Part shown: one piece after another, positions 3,201-59,824 of the stretch
Layout of the letters: every line of letters begins with the position of its first letter
How positions within the stretch are numbered: position 1 is the stretch's first letter
DNA from: Parcubacteria group bacterium Gr01-1014_8
GTDB taxonomy: Bacteria > Patescibacteriota > Minisyncoccia > Phycocordibacterales > UBA2100
Length of the DNA stretch: 64,000 bases
Assembly (NCBI GenBank): GCA_007376385.1
Contig: VMGC01000001.1
Location: 96,001 to 160,000 of the forward strand
Reading direction: 5' to 3'
Notes under the pieces: model-generated
What the model saw: the letters and a program-made list of their open reading frames with translations, nothing else
What the model was told of the DNA's origin: nothing
The model's database searches: none
Position numbers and translations under genes: made by a program

Positions 3201-4145
3201 TTACCGTCCCGGCGTGGGAGACGCTTTATCTATCCAGTCTGACGCAGTGTCGGTGTCTCTTGTCGGCAAGCTTCTTGCCATTGAGTGCCCGTCAGGTACA
3301 ACAGGAACCGACGGACTGAACGCATTCGTGTTCGTGCCCCACGACGCTGCATCTGCGGGCGATGCAGAAATTGAACTGCGAATTCGTACCACATCTCCTC
3401 CATTCGTGAGTCCATTTCCGATGGAGCTACCTAGTATTACGACAACAGTGTCCGAAGGAATATTCCATTTATTCTTTGTATTTTCATTTGCGACAATGAG
3501 CATGTATTTTCCGGGCGCAAGCGTTGTGTTACTTGGCAGAGTATCGGAACCTCCTGCATTTTGGATGATCCAGCCTGAAAGATTTACCGTATTCCCAGTG
3601 CCGTTGTACAACTCCACCCATTCATTATCAGGATCGTCTCCATGTGCCCAGTCGACATCGTAGTAAATTTCATTGATCACAAGCTTCGGTGTCTCCGGAG
3701 GCGGCACAGGACTTGGCGATGGAGAGGGAGATGGCGAAGGTGACGGACTCGGGCCTGGGCTTGGACTTGGTGATGGATTTGGCGGCGGCCTGTATGCTGG
3801 CGCAGCCGGACCGCTCGAGCCCATCATCATTATGGAAATAGCAGGCTGCACATAAATGGGACTGACGGACCACAAGCAGTCATATGGAATACCCGTTAAC
3901 CCTAATAGCCACTGTCCTACATTGCGCGGCGGTCCGAACTGGTACGTTCTTGTCGAGCGCGTCCACACATAATCTCCGGGGACTGGCGGTGAGAGCCTTG
4001 TAAAAATTGTTTCGTTGTAGCAGACGTGATAGACCGTGATGCGCCCGCCGAACGGAAATGCAAGCGCGGGGGCGCTGAACAGCGCCCAGAAAAGCAGAGA
4101 CATCAATATGAACAAGGAAAGCTTCGACGCTAAAGCCATATGCAT
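3201..4145 (-). CDS. Secreted protein with PSPSPS low-complexity linker and C-terminal lamin-tail-domain (LTD)-like fold
   Basis: N-terminal signal/TM (LSLFILMSLLFWALFSAPALA), (PS)n repeat, VINEIYYD...EWVELYNGTGNTVNLSGWII LTD-like signature. Confidence 0.6.
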   Translation of the reverse strand: MHMALASKLSLFILMSLLFWALFSAPALAFPFGGRITVYHVCYNETIFTRLSPPVPGDYVWTRSTRTYQFGPPRNVGQWLLGLTGIPYDCLWSVSPIYVQPAISIMMMGSSGPAAPAYRPPPNPSPSPSPGPSPSPSPSPSPSPSPVPPPETPKLVINEIYYDVDWAHGDDPDNEWVELYNGTGNTVNLSGWIIQNAGGSDTLPSNTTLAPGKYMLIVANENTKNKWNIPSDTVVVILGSSIGNGLTNGGDVVRIRSSISASPADAASWGTNTNAFSPSVPVVPDGHSMARSLPTRDTDTASDWIDKASPTPGR

Positions 4146-5215: not shown

Positions 5216-6055
5216 GTGGAAGGCGGAAGACCATCCTCCATTGTTATTACTGCCGGGCTTGCGGCAGCGATTTTGCTTTCCGCCATCGGCTGGCAGCTCG
5301 GCGGATACTGGGCCAAACATCACGTCGTAAAAAAACCAATTCAATTTGATAGAGCGCCAGATGAGACATCGAAAGCGCCCGTCATCGGCTCGATAAGCAA
5401 CGACTGGCGCGATGAGTTAGCGAGACTCGGACTAGTAAATACCACGACGGACGCAGCCGTTGCGACCTCCTCGGATCCACTCGCGACATTTGGCGATACC
5501 ATTGCTCAAGAATTCCTTACCACCTACCTGTCACTCAAACAATACGGCAGCTATTCCCCGGAAAAAGCTGCGCAACTAGGCAAAGCGCTCGGAAGTAATG
5601 CTCATGTTCCGACAAATTTCACATTACACGCAAGCAGCGAGCTGACCCTTGCTTCCGATACGTCAAAGGAGCGTATCTTGAAATATCGAAGCGAAATGCG
5701 AGATGCCTTACGCATGTTGGTAAATGGCTCGCCGCCAGAATTCGAAACATTGGCGCTCTATATTGAGACAAAAAACCCCGAGCGTCTCATTGAACTCTCG
5801 GAAGCGGCCGAACGCTATCGAGATGCGGAGAAAAATGCCCTCGCCGTGGTCGTGCCAAGCGATGCTGCTGAGCTTCACATCCGGGTCGTTAATGCGCTCG
5901 GTGCATATGGAAGCGCAGTGGATCAACTTGTCCGCAGTATGGCGAGCCCCGTCACCACTTTAGCGGTTTTGAGAACGTATAATGAGGCTGAGCGCGAAAT
6001 GCTCTACGCATTTGACGCGCTTGCTAGCTATTATGTACGAAAGAGTAGTCAGTAA
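5216..6055 (+). CDS. Hypothetical membrane-anchored protein
   Basis: Long ORF with N-terminal TM (ITAGLAAAILLSAIGW), tataat -10 near 5203. Confidence 0.5.
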   Translation: MEGGRPSSIVITAGLAAAILLSAIGWQLGGYWAKHHVVKKPIQFDRAPDETSKAPVIGSISNDWRDELARLGLVNTTTDAAVATSSDPLATFGDTIAQEFLTTYLSLKQYGSYSPEKAAQLGKALGSNAHVPTNFTLHASSELTLASDTSKERILKYRSEMRDALRMLVNGSPPEFETLALYIETKNPERLIELSEAAERYRDAEKNALAVVVPSDAAELHIRVVNALGAYGSAVDQLVRSMASPVTTLAVLRTYNEAEREMLYAFDALASYYVRKSSQ

Positions 6056-11304: not shown

Positions 11305-11976
11305 ATGTCAGAGATCACATCATCAATACCGCGCGTGAGCAGCAAAGCAACCCAAGATTTTGTGCCCGTGCATGAAGTTCGGGATGGCGTCGTTGTCCTC
11401 AAAGATGGAGGCCTTCGAGCAATACTCCTAGCCTCGTCATTGAACTTCGCACTGAAATCCGAGGACGAGCAAACCGCATTTATCGTTCAATTCCAGAATT
11501 TTCTCAACTCACTGGATTTTTCCGTACAGATATTCGTGCAATCACGAATGCTCGACATACGCCCCTACATCGCCACCTTGGAGTCACAGTTCAAACAACA
11601 ATTGGACGACCTTATGCGCATACAGATACGCGAATACATCGGCTTCATAAAAAGCTTCACTGAAGCCGCTAACATCATGACGAAGAATTTCTTTATCATC
11701 GTGCCGTACTCGCCCGCGATCATCCAAACCGGTCAAGGAATACTCGGCAAATTGCCCTTTACCGGCAAAAAGAAAAATTCTGAAGAAGAGAACCGCACTT
11801 TTGAAGAACAAATATCGCAGCTCGAGCAGCGCATCTCCATCGTCCAGCAGGGGCTCATCCGCACCGGCGTCCGCACCGTCCAGCTTGGAACTGAGGAAGC
11901 GATAGAATTGATGTACAAAATGTTCAACCCCGGTGAAGAAGGGAAGCCAATGGCCGTTCCTGAATCGCAAAAATAG
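11305..11976 (+). CDS. VirB4 (TraE/Orf16-type) N-terminal domain, encoded as a separate ORF
   Basis: VRDGVVVLKDGGLRAILLASSLNFALKSEDEQTAFIVQFQNFLNSLDFSVQIFVQ...KNFFIIVPY matches the characteristic N-terminus of Gram-positive VirB4 homologues. Ends TAG at 11974-11976, one nt before the ATG of the ATPase ORF. Confidence 0.55.
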   Translation: MSEITSSIPRVSSKATQDFVPVHEVRDGVVVLKDGGLRAILLASSLNFALKSEDEQTAFIVQFQNFLNSLDFSVQIFVQSRMLDIRPYIATLESQFKQQLDDLMRIQIREYIGFIKSFTEAANIMTKNFFIIVPYSPAIIQTGQGILGKLPFTGKKKNSEEENRTFEEQISQLEQRISIVQQGLIRTGVRTVQLGTEEAIELMYKMFNPGEEGKPMAVPESQK

Positions 11977-11977
11977 T

Positions 11978-13969
11978 ATGGCGCTCCTCGATCTATTCAA
12001 GAAAAAAGGGCCGCAGTCCGTAGTCTTGCCCGTATTGCCTGAAGAGATATTCCGCACGGGAGTTCTTGACCTTCAAGACGTCATCGCACCTCACGCTCTC
12101 CGCATTTCACCTCGCGAACTCGACCTTGGGGAAAAGATCGCACGCACATTCTTCGTTATCTCGTATCCGCGTTTTCTTACGACAGGATGGTTCGCGCCCA
12201 TCATTAACATGGATAAAATAATCGACATTTCGATATTCATTCACCCGATGGATACGAATGAAATGCTTCGAAAATTCCAAAAGAAAGTGGCAGAGGTTCA
12301 GAGCCAGATATCAACGCGGGAAGGGAAGGGCATGGTCAGAGACCCTATGCTTGACACCGCCTACGCTGACCTTGAAAAATTGCGTGATTCACTCCAGCAA
12401 GCACAGGAGCGCATCTTTGAAGTAGGATTGTATCTCACCATTTACGGCTCCACTCGCGAAGAAGTTGATAAGATAGAAAGCGAGGTACGCTCAATTCTTG
12501 AATCGCGCCTTGTGTATATCCGTCCCGCGCTATTCCAGCAAGAGCAAGGCTTCAGAAGCGTTCTGCCGACGGCAACCGATGAACTGAATGTGCACACAAA
12601 ATTGAATTCAGCCCCTCTTTCATCGGTATTTCCGTTCATTTCCTTCGACCTGACGTCCGACCGGGGAATTCTATATGGCATAAACCGCCATAATTCATCT
12701 CTCATTCTTTTTGATCGCTTCTCGCTTGAGAACTACAATTCAGTGACCTTTGCCAAGTCCGGTGCGGGAAAATCCTACACGACAAAACTTGAGATCCTGC
12801 GTTCGTTGATGTTCGATACAGAAGTCATCGTCATCGACCCCGAACGTGAATACGAATATCTCGCAGAGACGGTCGGCGGACGTTATTTCAATATCTCACT
12901 CTCCTCGGAGCACCACATCAATCCCTTTGACTTGCCGATACCGCGAGAAGATGAGAACCCCGGGGATGTGCTGCGCAACAATATCATCACGCTTGTCGGA
13001 CTTTTCCGTATCATGCTCGGAGGTTTGACGCCCGAAGAAGACGCCATCATCGACAAGGCCATCACCGAAACGTATGCCCTGAAAGACATCACGCAAGATG
13101 CGAATTTCGCAGCAGTCGAGCCGCCGCTTCTTTCCGACTTCGAACTCGTACTCTCCGGCATGGAGGGCAGCGATTCACTGGTTCAGAGACTCTCGAAATA
13201 TACAAAGGGCACGTGGTCAGGATTTATGAACCGCCCGACGAACGTTGACATGAATAAAAAATTGGTCGTCTTCTCGGTGCGAGACATGGAGGACGACCTG
13301 AAACCTGTCGCTATGTACATCATCACGCACCACATCTGGAATACCGTGCGAAAGGAACTCCGTAAACGACTCCTGGTGATCGATGAGGCATGGTGGATGA
13401 TGCGTTCCCAAGATACTGCGTCTTTCCTGTTTTCAATCGCAAAACGTGGACGTAAATACTATCTTGGAATCTCTACCATCACGCAAGACGTATCAGACTT
13501 TTTGAACTCCCCGTATGGAATACCGATGATAACCAACTCTTCTATCCAGCTCCTGCTCCGCCAATCGCCAACATCGGTCGACCTCGTGCAACAGACATTC
13601 AAATTGTCAGACGAGGAAAAATACCTGCTCTTGGAATCCGATGTAGGTGAAGGCATTTTCTTCGCAGGGCTGAAGCACGTAGCCATAAAAGTCATTGCTT
13701 CGTATACGGAAGACCAAATAATCACGTCCGACCCATCGCAGATACTTGCCATCCGCAAAGCGAAACAGGAACTGGTCTTGGCAAACGAGCCACAGAATGT
13801 AGCCCAGACGACCCCGATATCTCAAACCAAGGAAGCGGCCGCTATACTCCAAAGCTCGGCGTTAAAACCCGCTGAAGTGCCAAATACGCCAACGCCGCAG
13901 GCATCACCAACATCCGCGCCAAATACTACCCGACAAGTAGCATCAATTTTGGAGAGACCGGGTAATTGA
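11978..13969 (+). CDS. VirB4-family T4SS ATPase (ATPase domain ORF)
   Basis: Walker A FAKSGAGKSYTTK, Walker B RLLVIDEAWWMM, conserved YPRFLTTGWFAPII segment. Start taken at MALLDLF (11978), immediately after the upstream ORF stop. Confidence 0.85.
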   Translation: MALLDLFKKKGPQSVVLPVLPEEIFRTGVLDLQDVIAPHALRISPRELDLGEKIARTFFVISYPRFLTTGWFAPIINMDKIIDISIFIHPMDTNEMLRKFQKKVAEVQSQISTREGKGMVRDPMLDTAYADLEKLRDSLQQAQERIFEVGLYLTIYGSTREEVDKIESEVRSILESRLVYIRPALFQQEQGFRSVLPTATDELNVHTKLNSAPLSSVFPFISFDLTSDRGILYGINRHNSSLILFDRFSLENYNSVTFAKSGAGKSYTTKLEILRSLMFDTEVIVIDPEREYEYLAETVGGRYFNISLSSEHHINPFDLPIPREDENPGDVLRNNIITLVGLFRIMLGGLTPEEDAIIDKAITETYALKDITQDANFAAVEPPLLSDFELVLSGMEGSDSLVQRLSKYTKGTWSGFMNRPTNVDMNKKLVVFSVRDMEDDLKPVAMYIITHHIWNTVRKELRKRLLVIDEAWWMMRSQDTASFLFSIAKRGRKYYLGISTITQDVSDFLNSPYGIPMITNSSIQLLLRQSPTSVDLVQQTFKLSDEEKYLLLESDVGEGIFFAGLKHVAIKVIASYTEDQIITSDPSQILAIRKAKQELVLANEPQNVAQTTPISQTKEAAAILQSSALKPAEVPNTPTPQASPTSAPNTTRQVASILERPGN

Positions 13970-16982: not shown

Positions 16983-17138
16983 ATGAAAAAAGTTGCATCT
17001 AAGGTGCGCAGCGCGCGGAAGACGTTCGCATTTATCTCCCTTTCCGGCCTGAATGGTCCGGAATTCGCTCCGTTCCTCACCGCCGCGTTCAATAGCCAGA
17101 ATTTTCCCACATTCGTGAACGCTCTCTTTAAGGGTTGA
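16983..17138 (+). CDS. Small ORF (51 aa) carrying repeat copy 1, paralogue of 17590..17871
   Basis: MKKVASKVRSARKTFAFISLSGLNGPEFAPFLTAAFNSQNFPTFVNALFKG. ATG 2 nt after upstream stop. Confidence 0.3.
   Translation: MKKVASKVRSARKTFAFISLSGLNGPEFAPFLTAAFNSQNFPTFVNALFKG
17035..17133. repeat. Perfect 99-bp direct repeat, copy 1
   Basis: tctccctttccggcctgaatggtccggaattcgctccgttcctcaccgccgcgttcaatagccagaattttcccacattcgtgaacgctctctttaagg, identical at 17645-17743. Confidence 0.9.
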
Positions 17139-17589: not shown

Positions 17590-17871
17590 ATGAAAAAAAT
17601 ATTGTCCAAGTTTCGGGAGCTGCCTCACGCGTTCCAGGGTTTCGTCTCCCTTTCCGGCCTGAATGGTCCGGAATTCGCTCCGTTCCTCACCGCCGCGTTC
17701 AATAGCCAGAATTTTCCCACATTCGTGAACGCTCTCTTTAAGGAACAATTCACGCAACCGCCTGCACAGAATTCGTTCTTCGGAGGAGCAGGCGGACAAT
17801 TTGATCCTTCGCTCAATGGAGTTGGCGTCTCAGGTAATGAAATAGGGAACCCAAACCCATCATCACCGTAG
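17590..17871 (+). CDS. Small ORF (93 aa) carrying repeat copy 2, Gly/Pro/Asn-rich C-terminal tail
   Basis: MKKILSKFRELPHAFQGFVSLSGLNGPEFAPFLTAAFNSQNFPTFVNALFKEQF... tataat-like at ~17503. Confidence 0.35.
   Translation: MKKILSKFRELPHAFQGFVSLSGLNGPEFAPFLTAAFNSQNFPTFVNALFKEQFTQPPAQNSFFGGAGGQFDPSLNGVGVSGNEIGNPNPSSP
17645..17743. repeat. Perfect 99-bp direct repeat, copy 2
   Basis: Identical to 17035-17133, flanks diverge immediately outside. Confidence 0.9.
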
Positions 17872-38777: not shown

Positions 38778-38848
38778 CCCCTGGTAGCTCAATGGTAGAG
38801 CAGCTGCCTTTTAAGCAGTTGACGGAGGTCCGATTCCTCCCCGGGGGA
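38778..38848 (+). tRNA. tRNA-Lys (anticodon TTT)
   Basis: Cloverleaf folds by hand: acceptor cccctgg/ccggggg, D arm gctc-aatggta-gagc, anticodon arm gctgc-cttttaa-gcagt, T arm ggagg-tccgatt-cctcc. Closely resembles E. coli tRNA-Lys. Confidence 0.7.
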
Positions 38849-39024
38849 AAGTTTTTTAAACTTCACACGGGAGAAGCGTGCAATGCACGCTTCGTGAAGA
38901 ATCGGACGCCGGAGCGATGTTTTGTCAGCAGACAAAACCGCGAGGCGGTGCCCAGACAAACTTTTGCGACGGCAAAAGTTTAGTCGCGGGAGATTCCTCC
39001 CCGGGGGAAAGTTTTTTAAACTTT
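38849..39024 (+). other. tRNA-linked structured element copy 1: ~145-nt hairpin-rich segment closed by a 33-bp direct duplicate of the tRNA-Lys 3' end
   Basis: Direct repeat gattcctccccgggggaaagttttttaaactt at 38832-38864 and 38992-39024. Internal conserved motifs acgccggagcgatgt, accgcgaggcggtgcccagac, agtcgcgggaga shared with copy 2. Confidence 0.6.
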
Positions 39025-53318: not shown

Positions 53319-53627
53319 ATGCCATACAAATATCGAAAAGATTTGTACGCTGCTCAAAAGAGGCATCGTATACGAGTACGAGAAAAACTGCTCGGATTTC
53401 TTAGTACGAAACAGTGCATCGATTGCGGCGAGAAAGATCCAATTGTTTTGGATTTTGATCATATTGATAGAGCGAGTAAATCCAGAAATGTTGCGGGATT
53501 TTTATCGGGGCATTGGTCTTGGGAGTCTGTTCTAACAGAGATTCGTAAATGCGAAATCAGATGCGCCAATTGTCACCGGCGAAAAACCTATCATCAATTC
53601 GGTTCTTTTGGTAGAACTATCAAGTAG
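53319..53627 (+). CDS. HNH endonuclease
   Basis: CIDCGEKDPIVLDFDHIDRAS...CANCHRRKTY HNH/zinc motif. Ends at first nt of tRNA-Arg. Confidence 0.75.
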   Translation: MPYKYRKDLYAAQKRHRIRVREKLLGFLSTKQCIDCGEKDPIVLDFDHIDRASKSRNVAGFLSGHWSWESVLTEIRKCEIRCANCHRRKTYHQFGSFGRTIK

Positions 53628-53698
53628 CCCCCGTAGTTTAATGGATAAAACAGCGGACTTCTAAGCCGTTGATCGAGGTTCGATTCCTCGCGGGGGCA
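53627..53698 (+). tRNA. tRNA-Arg (anticodon TCT)
   Basis: Acceptor gcccccg/cgggggc, D arm gttt-aatggata-aaac, anticodon loop cttctaa (one A.G mismatch in stem), T arm cgagg-ttcgatt-cctcg. Confidence 0.6.
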
Positions 53699-53720
53699 AA
53701 AAAATGTATAGTAGGAGTTC

Positions 53721-53793
53721 GGGCGGTTAGCTCAGTTGGTAGAGCAACCCCTTTACACGGGGAAGGTCACAGGTTCGAGTCCTGTATCGCCCA
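53721..53793 (+). tRNA. tRNA-Val (anticodon TAC)
   Basis: Acceptor gggcggt/atcgccc, D arm gctc-agttggta-gagc, anticodon loop tttacac, T arm acagg-ttcgagt-cctgt. Confidence 0.7.
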
Positions 53794-53960
53794 CAAAATA
53801 GTAAACTATTTTGTGGCGGTAAGTGCGCAAACTGATTTGCGCACGTCAGGACGAGAACGCCGGAGCGATGTCGCGCGAGGACGCGCGACCGCGAGGCGGT
53901 GCCCAGACCGAGGCGAGCGGCGGCGAGCGGAGAGTCGCGGGAGAGTCCTGTATCGCCCAC
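53794..53960 (+). other. tRNA-linked structured element copy 2: ~150-nt hairpin-rich segment closed by an 18-bp duplicate of the tRNA-Val 3' end
   Basis: gagtcctgtatcgcccac at 53777-53794 and 53943-53960. Same three conserved motifs as copy 1 in the same order. Hairpins gtgcgcaaactgatttgcgcac and gtcgcgcgaggacgcgcgac. Confidence 0.6.
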
Positions 53961-54004
53961 TCTGGTTTGATAATGGTCCAGCGGTGTGTTACAGTCCTGG
54001 CCGT

Positions 54005-54451
54005 ATGGTTGCTAATAAAGTCGTTGTTTCTCCAGTCGACATGACCGCGCGAAAGGCGCTTGACGTGCGTCCGGGTGATACCGTGCGCGTGTTCCAAAAG
54101 ATAGAGGAGGAAAAGGGGAAGTACCGTCTTCAAGCGTTTGAAGGGTTGGTGTTGGCGCGAAAACACGGCACTGAAGCTGGCGCGACGTTCACTGTGCGAA
54201 AAGTGACAAGCGGTGTCGGTGTTGAAAAGATATTTCCGCTCTATTCTCCAATGATAGATAAAGTCGAGATAGTAAAGCGTGCTCGAGTGCGCCGTGCGAA
54301 GCTCTATTATATTCGAGACAAAGTTGCTCGCGAAGCGCGCCGACAACTTCGCCGCGCGAAAGTCGTGGTCCCGTTGCAAGGCGAAGTGGTTCTCGACGAT
54401 GCGGCCGAACCTGTCGCTGAAGAAGTTGGAACTCCAGAGAAAAGTGAGTAA
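54005..54451 (+). CDS. rplS: 50S ribosomal protein L19 with C-terminal acidic extension
   Basis: GDTVRVFQKIEEEKGKYRLQAFEGLVLARKH...FTVRKVTSGVGVEKIFPLYSPMIDKVEIVKRARVRRAKLYYIR. Start trimmed to MVANKV. Confidence 0.85.
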   Translation: MVANKVVVSPVDMTARKALDVRPGDTVRVFQKIEEEKGKYRLQAFEGLVLARKHGTEAGATFTVRKVTSGVGVEKIFPLYSPMIDKVEIVKRARVRRAKLYYIRDKVAREARRQLRRAKVVVPLQGEVVLDDAAEPVAEEVGTPEKSE

Positions 54452-54521: not shown

Positions 54522-55199
54522 ATGGGGAAGCGAGGACCCAAGCCTGGATTCAAAATTACACGTCGTGTCTCAGAGAAATGGACGCCGGAATTAGCATATG
54601 CGATCGGGCTTCTTGCGACAGACGGTTGTCTTGCGCGGCACCAGTCGCTAATTGATCTGACGTCAAAAGATCAGGAGCAATTGAAGAATTTCTCAAAGTG
54701 TATTGGAATTCCACTTTTCATCGGCACGAAATTTGGTAGTCACCATAAGGGCGTATATTACAGAGTTCAATTTAAGAATCTCATCTTCTATAACTTTCTC
54801 CTCTCCGTTGGTCTGACGCCGGCAAAATCGAAAACGATGGGAGCGCTTGGGGTTCCGAAAGAATATTTCTGGGACTTTCTTCGCGGATCTTACGATGGTG
54901 ATGGATGTTCATATTCATATTGGGATCCACGATGGAAATCGAGTTTTATGTTTTACACGAGTTTTGTTTCCGCGAGTCGAGAGCATATTGATTGGTTGCA
55001 AAAAGAGATTTTTGCGCGGCTCAAAATCACTGGGCACATCACGCAGGCTAAAAGAAATATCTTGTACCAACTTAAGTACGCAAAAAGTGATTCCCTGAAG
55101 TTACTGAAAAAAATGTATCACTCGAGTAAAGTTATTTGTCTTTCGCGAAAAAGATTGAAAATAGAGCGAATTTTGAGTACAGTTAGCGAGAAGCTGTAA
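54522..55199 (+). CDS. Free-standing double-motif LAGLIDADG homing endonuclease
   Basis: LAYAIGLLATDGCL (motif 1) and FLRGSYDGDGCSY (motif 2). Lies between rplS and tRNA-Leu. Confidence 0.75.
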   Translation: MGKRGPKPGFKITRRVSEKWTPELAYAIGLLATDGCLARHQSLIDLTSKDQEQLKNFSKCIGIPLFIGTKFGSHHKGVYYRVQFKNLIFYNFLLSVGLTPAKSKTMGALGVPKEYFWDFLRGSYDGDGCSYSYWDPRWKSSFMFYTSFVSASREHIDWLQKEIFARLKITGHITQAKRNILYQLKYAKSDSLKLLKKMYHSSKVICLSRKRLKIERILSTVSEKL

Positions 55200-59326: not shown

Positions 59327-59824
59327 GTGGCTCTTCTGAACTGCATTGTATGTGACAAGGAATTCAAAAGAAAACCTTTTCTCATACGCCGCAGTGGAGG
59401 TAAATATTGCTCAAATACTTGCCATTATTCGGATGCCCGCACTGGTAAAAAGATTTCCTGCTCAACTTGCGGCAAAGAGGTCTACAGGACTCCACGCAGA
59501 CTTAAACTCTCAAAAAGTAAAACTTATTTTTGCAACAAATCCTGCCAAACGTTATGGCGGAATCAATACTTTGTTGGGCGGAGACATAAGAACTGGATCC
59601 ATGGACGTGCTGCGTATCGCACAGTGCTCGCTCGAATAGGCCGAGAGAAAATATGCGAATCGTGTAAGACAAAAGATACTCGTGTTCTTGCAATTCATCA
59701 TATTGATCGAGTAAGAACGAACATTGATCCAAGCAATCTGGTGTGGCTTTGCCATAATTGCCATTTCCTCCTTCATCATTATGATGTGGGACGAGAGCGT
59801 GGTTTACTGAGATCGCATTCTTGA
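59327..59824 (+). CDS. HNH endonuclease with N-terminal Cys-rich zinc-ribbon repeats
   Basis: CIVCDKEF...CSNTCHY...CSTCGKEV...CNKSCQ then HHIDRVRTNIDPSNLVWLCHNCHFLLHH. Ends 4 nt before tRNA-His. Confidence 0.7.
   Translation: MALLNCIVCDKEFKRKPFLIRRSGGKYCSNTCHYSDARTGKKISCSTCGKEVYRTPRRLKLSKSKTYFCNKSCQTLWRNQYFVGRRHKNWIHGRAAYRTVLARIGREKICESCKTKDTRVLAIHHIDRVRTNIDPSNLVWLCHNCHFLLHHYDVGRERGLLRSHS

Follow-up and report, generated by a model that had tools for sequence, protein, structure and literature searches.

Integrative elements that use tRNA and tmRNA genes (tyrosine-integrase attL/attR units, and integrase-less satellites such as cis-mobilizable elements (CIMEs) and tycheposon-type arrays of partial tRNA copies) have a direct repeat that starts in the T-loop, leave the tRNA intact, accrete in tandem and occur at sites that are filled in some genomes and empty in others. 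The known integrative satellites span kilobases, and a folded single strand is not what defines them. A conserved scaffold with short target-specific segments is found in another group of systems, the guide RNAs of mobile elements and their relatives (bridge RNA/seekRNA of IS110, omega RNA of TnpB/IscB and tigRNA of TIGR-Tas). In bridge RNA and tigRNA these segments are complementary to both target strands, and TIGR systems, whose tigRNAs are 36 nt long with 9-nt spacers and lie in arrays, are also present in Patescibacteria (PMC12045711). Small ribozymes next to tRNAs, the theta ribozymes, have been described as well (PMC10879173). We analysed a stretch of 64,000 nucleotides from Parcubacteria group bacterium Gr01-1014_8 (contig VMGC01000001.1, positions 96,001 to 160,000; hereafter the window), in which two short structured units lie directly behind tRNA genes: copy 1 behind tRNA-Lys(TTT) and copy 2, the main subject here, between tRNA-Val(TAC) and rplS.

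Copy 2 is a member of a family of insertion modules of ~115–170 nt, free of open reading frames (ORFs), that occupy the segment from the T-loop to the 3′ end of tRNA and tmRNA genes. Among the copies recovered the family is restricted to Patescibacteria, and it belongs to a wider superfamily. What the data establish is a single strand that folds in a conserved way and has arms templated on the target; at the T-loops of tRNA and tmRNA genes it is acquired, lost and exchanged. The feature is real and widespread, it is absent from Rfam and from the literature searched, and it could be assigned to none of the known families considered. We favour, at a probability of roughly 45%, the reading that this is a non-autonomous mobile element aimed at the T-loop, whose acting form is a folded single strand, probably RNA, and whose antisense arm works as an internal guide.

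Results

The original prediction for this DNA had reported an 18-bp duplicate of the tRNA-Val 3′ end behind the gene. The 18-mer GAGTCCTGTATCGCCCAC indeed has exactly two sites in the window, 166 bp apart (R1 and R2 in Table 1), and two matches were found in 0 of 100 dinucleotide shuffles, even with 2 mismatches allowed. The first site is the 3′ end of tRNA-Val(TAC) (ARAGORN; Rfam tRNA, 68.2 bits). The insert between the repeats measures 148 nt and the whole unit 166 nt, and it contains no ORF. Homologues align from residues 1–8 of the 148-aa rplS product, which places the true start of rplS at the ATG at 54005; the ORF 53669–54451, whose frame runs across both tRNA and element, is thus an artefact, in agreement with the original prediction. 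The copy 2 insert folds better than 200 of 200 shuffles (z = −3.8), in line with the strong hairpins noted before, and the copy 1 insert reaches z = −5.0. The direct repeat of copy 1 is 32 nt long (38832–38863 and 38992–39023), and it shares its T-loop starting position, G57, with the repeat of copy 2. The two copies had been said to carry the same motifs, and the invariant blocks ACGCCGGAGCGATGT, ACCGCGAGGCGGTGCCCAGAC and AGTCGCGGGAGA do align between the inserts; the hairpins between them differ with compensation, in all of their tips. Run on the window, a covariance model of 58 family members finds two copies and no more, copy 1 with 116 bits (38893–39007) and copy 2 with 109 bits, while the next best match stays below 10 bits. 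Together, the shuffles, the fold z-scores and these bit scores rule out chance or low complexity.

Behind the tRNA, the parts of the unit follow each other in a set order: a variable spacer (often an A-run, hairpin and T-run, then hairpin hpA), the anti-T arm, helix S2 (block m1, hairpin hpB, block m2), helix S3 (hairpin hpC, closed by m2 and m3) and the copy of the tRNA 3′ end. The 3′ part of m2 opens S3, m3 closes S3 and abuts the tRNA copy, and the first 8 nt of that copy form the 3′ strand of helix S1; its acceptor part lies outside the conserved helices. RNAalifold returns a three-way junction with double compensatory changes in 21 of 32 pairs. The core consists of two long hairpins, invariant in sequence at the base and variable at the tips, where changes are compensated and G·A motifs occur. 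Paired cells (94.5% versus 78% in shuffles), double-change cells (307 versus 92) and the covariation score (0.44 versus 0.14) were each at a level that 0 of 500 shuffles reached, and with slid partners pairing was 34–46% and the score 0.07–0.10. Helix S1 covaries in 5 of 6 pairs. In L076 and L113 (L-numbers are locus labels) an additional hairpin stands at the S2/S3 junction, as is often seen in structured RNAs.

The oppositions within S2 and S3 are highly asymmetric, with G·U 79 times versus A·C 6 times and purine·purine 51 times versus pyrimidine·pyrimidine 4 times, and therefore the folding strand is the tRNA-sense strand (RNA or top-strand DNA). Four extra columns inside the helices switch between sheared G·A and Watson–Crick pairs (132 purine·purine versus 0 pyrimidine·pyrimidine). 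The mismatches of S1 show no such bias (G·U 20, A·C 18), as expected for a helix that is templated rather than selected. The motifs shared by the two copies are thus real, but they are no obvious double-strand protein sites; they are the bases of covarying three-way-junction helices on the tRNA-sense strand. A mutual-information scan for pseudoknots or long-range covariation returned only the in-helix swaps from G·A to Watson–Crick, which argues against an HDV-like or other pseudoknotted ribozyme. A search of Rfam 15 gave only tRNA matches at the gathering threshold and, over 53600–54050, nothing relevant at E up to 10, and eight loci with other core types gave no relevant match at E up to 1; the families covered include hammerhead, twister, pistol, hatchet, HDV-like, group I/II introns, tmRNA, 6S, SRP and HEARO.

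The left arm of the core, absent from the original prediction, is 12–13 nt long and antisense to positions 53–65 of the local tRNA. Its longest helix with the T-loop and T-stem 3′ strand of its own tRNA has a mean length of 9.2 bp (at least 10 bp in 30 of 52 members), compared to 5.9 bp with other tRNAs. The arm tracks T-loop position 55 in all 52 members: it reads ..GGAC beside the 6 tRNAs with C55 and ..GAAC beside the 46 with U55, and both variants exist in the window (Lys GGAC, Val GAAC). Positions 53–56 are not in the downstream copy. Because position 55 is tracked nonetheless, the arm is antisense to positions 53–65 of the real tRNA and spans the 56|57 boundary. In copy 2, tandem G·A stands in the arm where two Watson–Crick pairs would be. 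A C at position 55 in place of the near-universal U (GGTCCGATTCC) is found in tRNA-Lys 38778–38848 of the window and in tRNAs of L009, L048, L086, L110 and L111.

The right-hand, sense copy starts at 56|57, within the T-loop, in 45 of 52 members, and its modal length is 18 nt (57–74). Its identity to the tRNA is 0.98–1.00 from position 60 almost to the 3′ end, 0.91–0.93 over the last two nucleotides and 0.51 at +1; in the acceptor part there are 9 mismatches in 408 positions. An encoded CCA is included in 4 of 4 cases, which weakens a target duplication measured by a fixed ruler. The earlier claim that the duplicated segment is specific to its own tRNA holds for 45 of 52 members with at most 2 mismatches. 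These sequences show that the arms are templated by the neighbouring tRNA. Two simpler descriptions were discarded. A degenerate second tRNA gene with an insertion does not account for a left arm that is antisense, not sense, to the T-loop. A tRNA-like molecule with a full acceptor helix would need an anti-acceptor segment; one is found in copy 2 and in some further members, clearly so in L078 and L103, and is not general, being weakly enriched across the family (mean helix 5.0 with the own tRNA versus 4.6 with other tRNAs).

Across the junction the arm lies exactly where a guide for ligated exons would lie, and the unit could accordingly be pictured as a T-loop intron, an intervening sequence removed from RNA by self-splicing or by an enzyme. 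Its arm, like a group I internal guide, would pair with the end of the 5′ exon (53–56) and the start of the 3′ exon (57–65), and where the upstream tRNA is intact, the copy would be a healed derivative or a reverse-splicing product. In L036 (2160–2400) tRNA-Ser(GGA) is interrupted after T55 by a 129–131-nt unit of the same core type as copy 2 (type A), with no intact upstream copy, and in-silico removal of the unit restores a canonical tRNA (ARAGORN call); this state is either intron-like or a dead gene. One related locus has a group I intron (Rfam, 54 bits; L076, 5372–5608, minus strand) a few kb from a tRNA-Met element array. Both would suit an intron. However, the interrupted state occurs in 1 of ~67 members and perhaps in a dead gene, the complete upstream tRNA in the window makes splicing unnecessary, and the ~95-nt core has no group I/II hallmarks and no Rfam intron match. 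We consider this explanation very doubtful.

For the family scan, a two-motif pattern was run against one genome per species and gave at least 119 loci. Among the matches listed, at least ~67 are true copies, all in metagenome-assembled or other genomes of Patescibacteria (Saccharibacteria, Paceibacterota, Kaiser-, Yanofsky-, Komeili-, Jorgensen-, Taylor- and Moraniibacteria), and the other matches are chance hits in high-GC genomes. We analysed 69 of the matches listed, two of which were later dropped as chance matches in high-GC genomes; 52 of the 69 sit 25–136 nt behind a tRNA on the same strand and terminate in a copy of its 3′ end, and at least 17 tRNA specificities are represented. At least 2 further copies stand behind tmRNA genes. 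A downstream copy of the own 3′ end was found for 50 of 148 tRNAs in 65 type-A loci, a sample biased towards carriers, and 12 of 141 tRNAs (8.5%) carry a unit in an element-independent sample anchored on rplS; in the window it is 2 of 7. A ribosomal protein leader for rplS is rejected, as copy 1 and the majority of members do not precede ribosomal genes.

At least four further core types (B to E), apparently unrelated, have the same architecture, namely an anti-T arm ending in ..TCGAA, then a core, then the tRNA 3′ end repeated in sense. Type B was found in L014, L076 and L052, type C in L051, L008, L123 and L142, type D in L106, L056, L126/127, L149, L188 and L189, and type E in L047. They are sometimes in tandem with type A, and L179 is intermediate between A and D. 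Three type-A units (L037 ~1050–1400, L122 ~1–330 and L067 ~5570–5920) have a tRNA/tmRNA-like 3′ copy; no tRNA or tmRNA was detectable upstream of them, even after in-silico splicing, and an interrupted tmRNA at these places is not supported. L037 and L122 have a common promoter-like box, CTTTTTGRTAYAATGACCAC, ~70 nt upstream of the arm. L004 (~3590–4020) holds an insert of ~420 nt with a small membrane/zinc-ribbon-like ORF (CPACG...CPECG), flanked by a ~30-nt repeat that equals the end of block m3 plus the tRNA-Glu copy.

The original prediction had set an integrase-like target duplication against a simple dispersed repeat. The start in the T-loop, the tmRNA targets, the tandem arrays and the filled and empty sites give the look of site-specific insertion at tRNA genes, so the unit is not a simple dispersed repeat, and these traits also speak for the integrase-like part of the claim. 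Against that part stands the lack of an integrase in the insert and in the window ORFs scanned with Pfam (those of at least 130 aa and those flanking the two copies), although a trans-acting enzyme may be encoded elsewhere in the genome. The same ORFs contained no transposase, reverse transcriptase, Cas or Nop protein, and no IntI, IS110 recombinase, TnpB/IscB or Tas.

Taken further, the units would be satellites of an integrase: miniature integrase-less attL–attR units with little beyond attP in between, which would depend for their mobility on a tyrosine integrase encoded at another place and acting in trans. In that case the conserved blocks would be double-strand protein sites, and the element-borne tRNA end and terminator would restore the gene (Campbell model). 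A direct repeat of the tRNA 3′ segment from the T-loop, the use of tmRNA and the arrays of the form R-E1-R-E2-R all agree with this, as does identity that stops at the functional tRNA end, with the CCA where it is encoded. An A-run/hairpin/T-run like the copy 2 trailer, terminator-like in appearance, follows the first tRNA copy in many members, and neither of the empty sites (L151 and L129) has one. For integrase subfamilies, crossover in the T-loop and the use of tmRNA were reportedly established by Williams in 2002. On the other hand, covariation that is strong, strand-specific and marked by G·U and G·A motifs would not be expected of double-strand sites, the integrase model does not need an antisense arm that tracks positions 53–56, and a double-stranded circle of ~166 bp would presumably be a poor recombination substrate. 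No kilobase-sized element with the same flanking repeats was seen within 3 kb of the 148 tRNAs. There was no true copy among 3 and 39 pattern matches on viral contigs, and BLAST against annotated phages and plasmids gave no match, results that also leave a phage or plasmid origin unsupported. Satellites of this kind seem to us quite improbable. Full-text searches of the literature outside subscription journals found no description of such units.

The gene order tRNA-Arg(TCT)–tRNA-Val(TAC)–X–rplS–tRNA-Leu(GAG) is kept in relatives with RplS 70–88% identical, and X differs between them. In most relatives it is a small acylphosphatase-like ORF (L129, L132, L137, L138, L140, L128, L124, L133 and L135), in L151 an empty gap of 41 nt, in L126 and L127 a different core with a tRNA copy and in L123 yet another core; the window has no acylphosphatase-like ORF, and its type-A element fills the interval between tRNA-Val and rplS. 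The 3′ half of tRNA-Val in L129 equals that of the window, yet the site is without a unit. L129 carries a variant core behind tRNA-Leu(GAG) (3557–3760), where the window has none. The closing helix of this variant (TTTTGTG/CACAAGAAAA) is not derived from the tRNA, there is no tRNA copy, and a terminator-like hairpin of its own follows.

Near-identical cores are found on different tRNAs in different genomes, each with arms that fit its own tRNA. Core identity is 98.9% between Arg-TCG and Cys-GCA, 96.5% between Arg-CCT and Pro-GGG, 95.3% between Arg-CCT and Lys-CTT, 94.1% between Tyr and copy 1 of the window (Lys-TTT), and 93.1% between Pro-CGG and Val-TAC. Because orthologous sites are empty or hold another core and because near-identical cores stand on different tRNAs, the elements move or are exchanged. 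It had been proposed that a base-by-base alignment would show the ends of the unit to coincide with the tRNA-derived repeats. This failed: near-identical copies are homologous only as far as the two arms, and often have unrelated spacers. In L087 and L117, by contrast to the pairs with unrelated spacers, the spacer motif, hpA and core are homologous and both arms differ, and therefore relatedness of whole units with rewritten arms and exchange of the core alone both occur. The spacers of these two loci and of L012, L018, L026, L044 and L045 have a recurrent purine-rich motif like CGAACGAAGTGAG just after the tRNA 3′ end, upstream of hpA.

The exchange between loci could also be that of an RNA useful to its host. 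The tRNA locus would then give rise to a small RNA, or to a module acting in cis, for example a self-cleaving ribozyme, an element for processing or stability, or a guide that brings a protein to the cognate T-arm. Its helix and tail would be kept matched by gene conversion or quasi-palindrome template switching, and it would spread by recombination after DNA uptake. Covariation, semi-conserved loops and the extra junction hairpin of L076 and L113 are typical of functional RNAs, and the way in which several unrelated cores fill one architecture recalls interchangeable classes of ribozymes. The L129 variant with its non-tRNA closing helix and own terminator, the promoter-like box common to L037 and L122, and an acceptor part that is 98% identical to the tRNA although outside the conserved helices point the same way, as do the type IV pilus genes in the window (a T2SSE/PilB-type ATPase and PilM), if their role is, as we assume, in DNA uptake. 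However, a unit is present on only ~8.5% of tRNAs in the element-independent sample and on 2 of 7 in the window, and the orthologous sites are often empty or occupied by another core, which makes it dispensable. No known ribozyme or small RNA family in Rfam matches, and no pseudoknot or tertiary covariation was found. We judge a host-useful RNA unlikely.

The coordinates of the parts of both units are collected in Table 1.

Table 1. Parts of the two units in the window and the right-hand flank of copy 2.
Feature	Position	Strand	Basis
Intact tRNA-Val(TAC); its last 18 nt, 53777–53794 (positions 57–74), are repeat copy R1	53721..53794	+	ARAGORN, Rfam, exact repeat
Trailer hairpin AAAATAGT-AAAC-TATTTT (A-run, hairpin, T-run), weakly terminator-like	53795..53812	+	sequence reading; paired in fold
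GGCGGTA, pairs with the acceptor 3′ strand of the downstream copy (TATCGCC); optional in the family	53815..53821	+	minimum free energy fold
Variable hairpin hpA (GTGCGCAAA-CTGA-TTTGCGCAC), abuts helix S1	53823..53844	+	fold; hairpins of other sequence at the same place in other members
Anti-T arm CAGGACGAGAAC, antisense to tRNA-Val positions 64–53; 5′ strand of helix S1	53847..53858	+	arm–tRNA helix comparison, S1 covariation
Helix S2: block m1 GCCGGAGCGATG 53859–53870, variable hairpin hpB 53871–53888, block m2 CCGCGAGGCGGTGCCCAGAC 53889–53908	53859..53908	+	alignments, RNAalifold, pair counts
Helix S3: tip hpC 53909–53932 (G·A-rich, apical GCGGCGGC) and block m3 AGTCGCGGGA 53933–53942	53909..53942	+	alignments, pair counts, G·A/Watson–Crick swaps
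R2, sense copy of tRNA-Val positions 57–74	53943..53960	+	exact repeat
Promoter-like site for rplS, TTGATA-17-TACAGT with TG; right-hand host flank, outside the element	53967..53995	+	sequence
Copy 1 behind tRNA-Lys(TTT) 38778–38848: anti-T arm 38896–38907 (GAAGAATCGGAC), core 38908–38991, tRNA copy and trailer hairpin 38992–39023	38849..39023	+	alignment, fold, covariance model

In relatives, TGGTATAGTGCC stands at the place that matches the promoter-like site of rplS. The window is a core chromosomal region (dnaA, dnaN, polA, ruvB, pili, rplS and nusG). Two small HNH-type ORFs (53319–53627 and 59327–59824) end at, or at most 6 nt from, the start of tRNA-Arg-TCT and tRNA-His, respectively, and orthologues or pseudogene fragments lie at the same place in some relatives (L198, L166 and L132/134/145). 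A LAGLIDADG_3-domain ORF lies between rplS and tRNA-Leu(GAG) (54522–55199); it is at the same site in ~15 relatives (44–64% identity) and absent in others, e.g. L151 and L126. We rejected these HNH and LAGLIDADG ORFs as partner enzymes, as they look like separate free-standing genes of the homing type with their own pattern of presence and absence. Elsewhere in the window, a perfect direct repeat of 99 nt (17035–17133 and 17645–17743, spacing 610 nt) lies downstream of a block of unannotated ORFs and of a TraG/VirB4-like ATPase gene (11933–13969).

Discussion

Under the favoured reading, a non-autonomous mobile element of the T-loop, the acting form would be the folded single strand of tRNA-sense polarity, most likely the RNA of the element, which would require that the element is transcribed. 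By pairing with the target T-loop on either side of the insertion point 56|57, the antisense arm would act as an internal guide, and the core may be recognised by a trans-acting enzyme or may itself be catalytic. Insertion would leave the 18-nt tRNA end on both sides, so that the upstream tRNA stays whole. Both arms would be copied from the neighbouring tRNA gene or corrected against it; this rewriting may take place at insertion or later, through quasi-palindrome template switching and gene conversion with the adjacent tRNA.

Several observations weigh against this reading. Many members have a terminator-like hairpin between the tRNA and the element, and co-transcription is therefore not assured. 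The unbiased mismatches in S1 give no proof that this helix forms in RNA. Copy 1 and copy 2 do not closely resemble each other, unlike the copies of an actively bursting transposon, and the spacers are unrelated in several near-identical pairs; the recent events may be core swaps by recombination between resident scaffolds and not transposition of whole units. The L129 variant fits a free-standing RNA gene as well as a mobile element. Finally, there was no candidate enzyme in the window ORFs scanned, in the elements or on viral contigs.

A bolder version proposes a new class of RNA-structured mobile elements, in which a scaffold of ~95 nt, possibly catalytic, carries a guide that invades the T-loop of tRNA or tmRNA (the gene, or the transcript, which would then be copied back into DNA), and in which guide and 3′ tail are rewritten for each target. 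We regard it as unlikely. If such self-retargeting were true, an element without any protein gene would be widespread in Patescibacteria, and several unrelated scaffolds would have converged on one strategy. Were the favoured reading correct, Patescibacteria would have a large, uncatalogued family of gene-less structured units with a guide copied from the target and aimed at the most conserved loop in biology; in the loci sampled about one tRNA in twelve carries a unit. This would represent a new type of small mobile or guide-bearing RNA, with possibly a new ribozyme or new protein–RNA scaffolds, and would account for many intergenic ‘ORFs’ and odd tRNA flanks in these minimal genomes. Such units could mark recombination or DNA exchange between uncultured lineages, and a compact scaffold retargeted by base pairing would be of engineering interest. 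Even the tamest interpretation, an integrase satellite reduced to a folded attP, would make this the smallest integrative unit known and would show single-strand folding in a recombination system of tRNA sites.

How does the unit compare with known systems? With the integrative elements of tRNA and tmRNA genes it has in common the traits listed at the outset, including a repeat with a defined tRNA crossover. It differs in its length of ~150 nt, in having no ORF and no integrase nearby among the window ORFs, and in its strand-specific three-way junction and target-templated antisense arm, which do not suggest fold-free recognition of a double strand. Integration of the Cas1 type (casposons at tRNA 3′ ends and the duplication of the CRISPR repeat) may offer a parallel, with its long duplication of nearly fixed length and its repeat–insert–repeat arrays. 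In our unit the duplication has a modal length of 18 bp but runs through the CCA when this is encoded (4/4), there is no Cas1 in the window ORFs scanned, there are no shared terminal inverted repeats, and the inserts are conserved structured units, not captured fragments. Miniature inverted-repeat transposable elements (MITEs) and REPINs are similar in size (100–170 nt), lack of ORFs and strong hairpins with compensatory changes. In contrast, the inverted ends of our unit are derived from the target and vary from locus to locus, copies within a genome are not near-identical, the duplication is 18 nt long, only tRNA and tmRNA sites are used, and no RAYT was seen.

Small ribozymes by tRNAs (theta/HDV-like, hammerhead) are likewise structured RNAs directly 3′ of a tRNA, with several unrelated cores in one context; they carry no tRNA-derived arms, whereas the unit has no match to a ribozyme model (E up to 10) and no nested pseudoknot signal. 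Integron attC sites function, as proposed here, through a folded single strand, and the left arm ending in ..TCGAAC and the T-loop GTTCGA partially resemble the attC core sites (RYYYAAC / GTTRRRY). In attC it is the bottom strand that folds, whereas here it is the tRNA-sense strand, and there is no IntI in the window ORFs scanned. In group I introns (internal guide sequence, P1/P10) and group II introns (exon- and intron-binding sites, EBS/IBS), one antisense segment covers both sides of the insertion point, as the arm does with 53–56 and 57–65, and L036 looks intron-like; the unit differs in that its core is far too small, has no conserved intron helices (P3–P9) and no Rfam match, and that the upstream tRNA is nearly always complete. 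Compared with the guide RNAs, the unit has no associated protein gene, its two target-derived segments pair with each other and are not open loops, and its arms are duplications, which omega guides are not. What it has in common with bridge RNA, omega RNA and tigRNA is a conserved scaffold with short target-specific segments, and, as in bridge RNA and tigRNA, these segments are complementary to both strands of the target.

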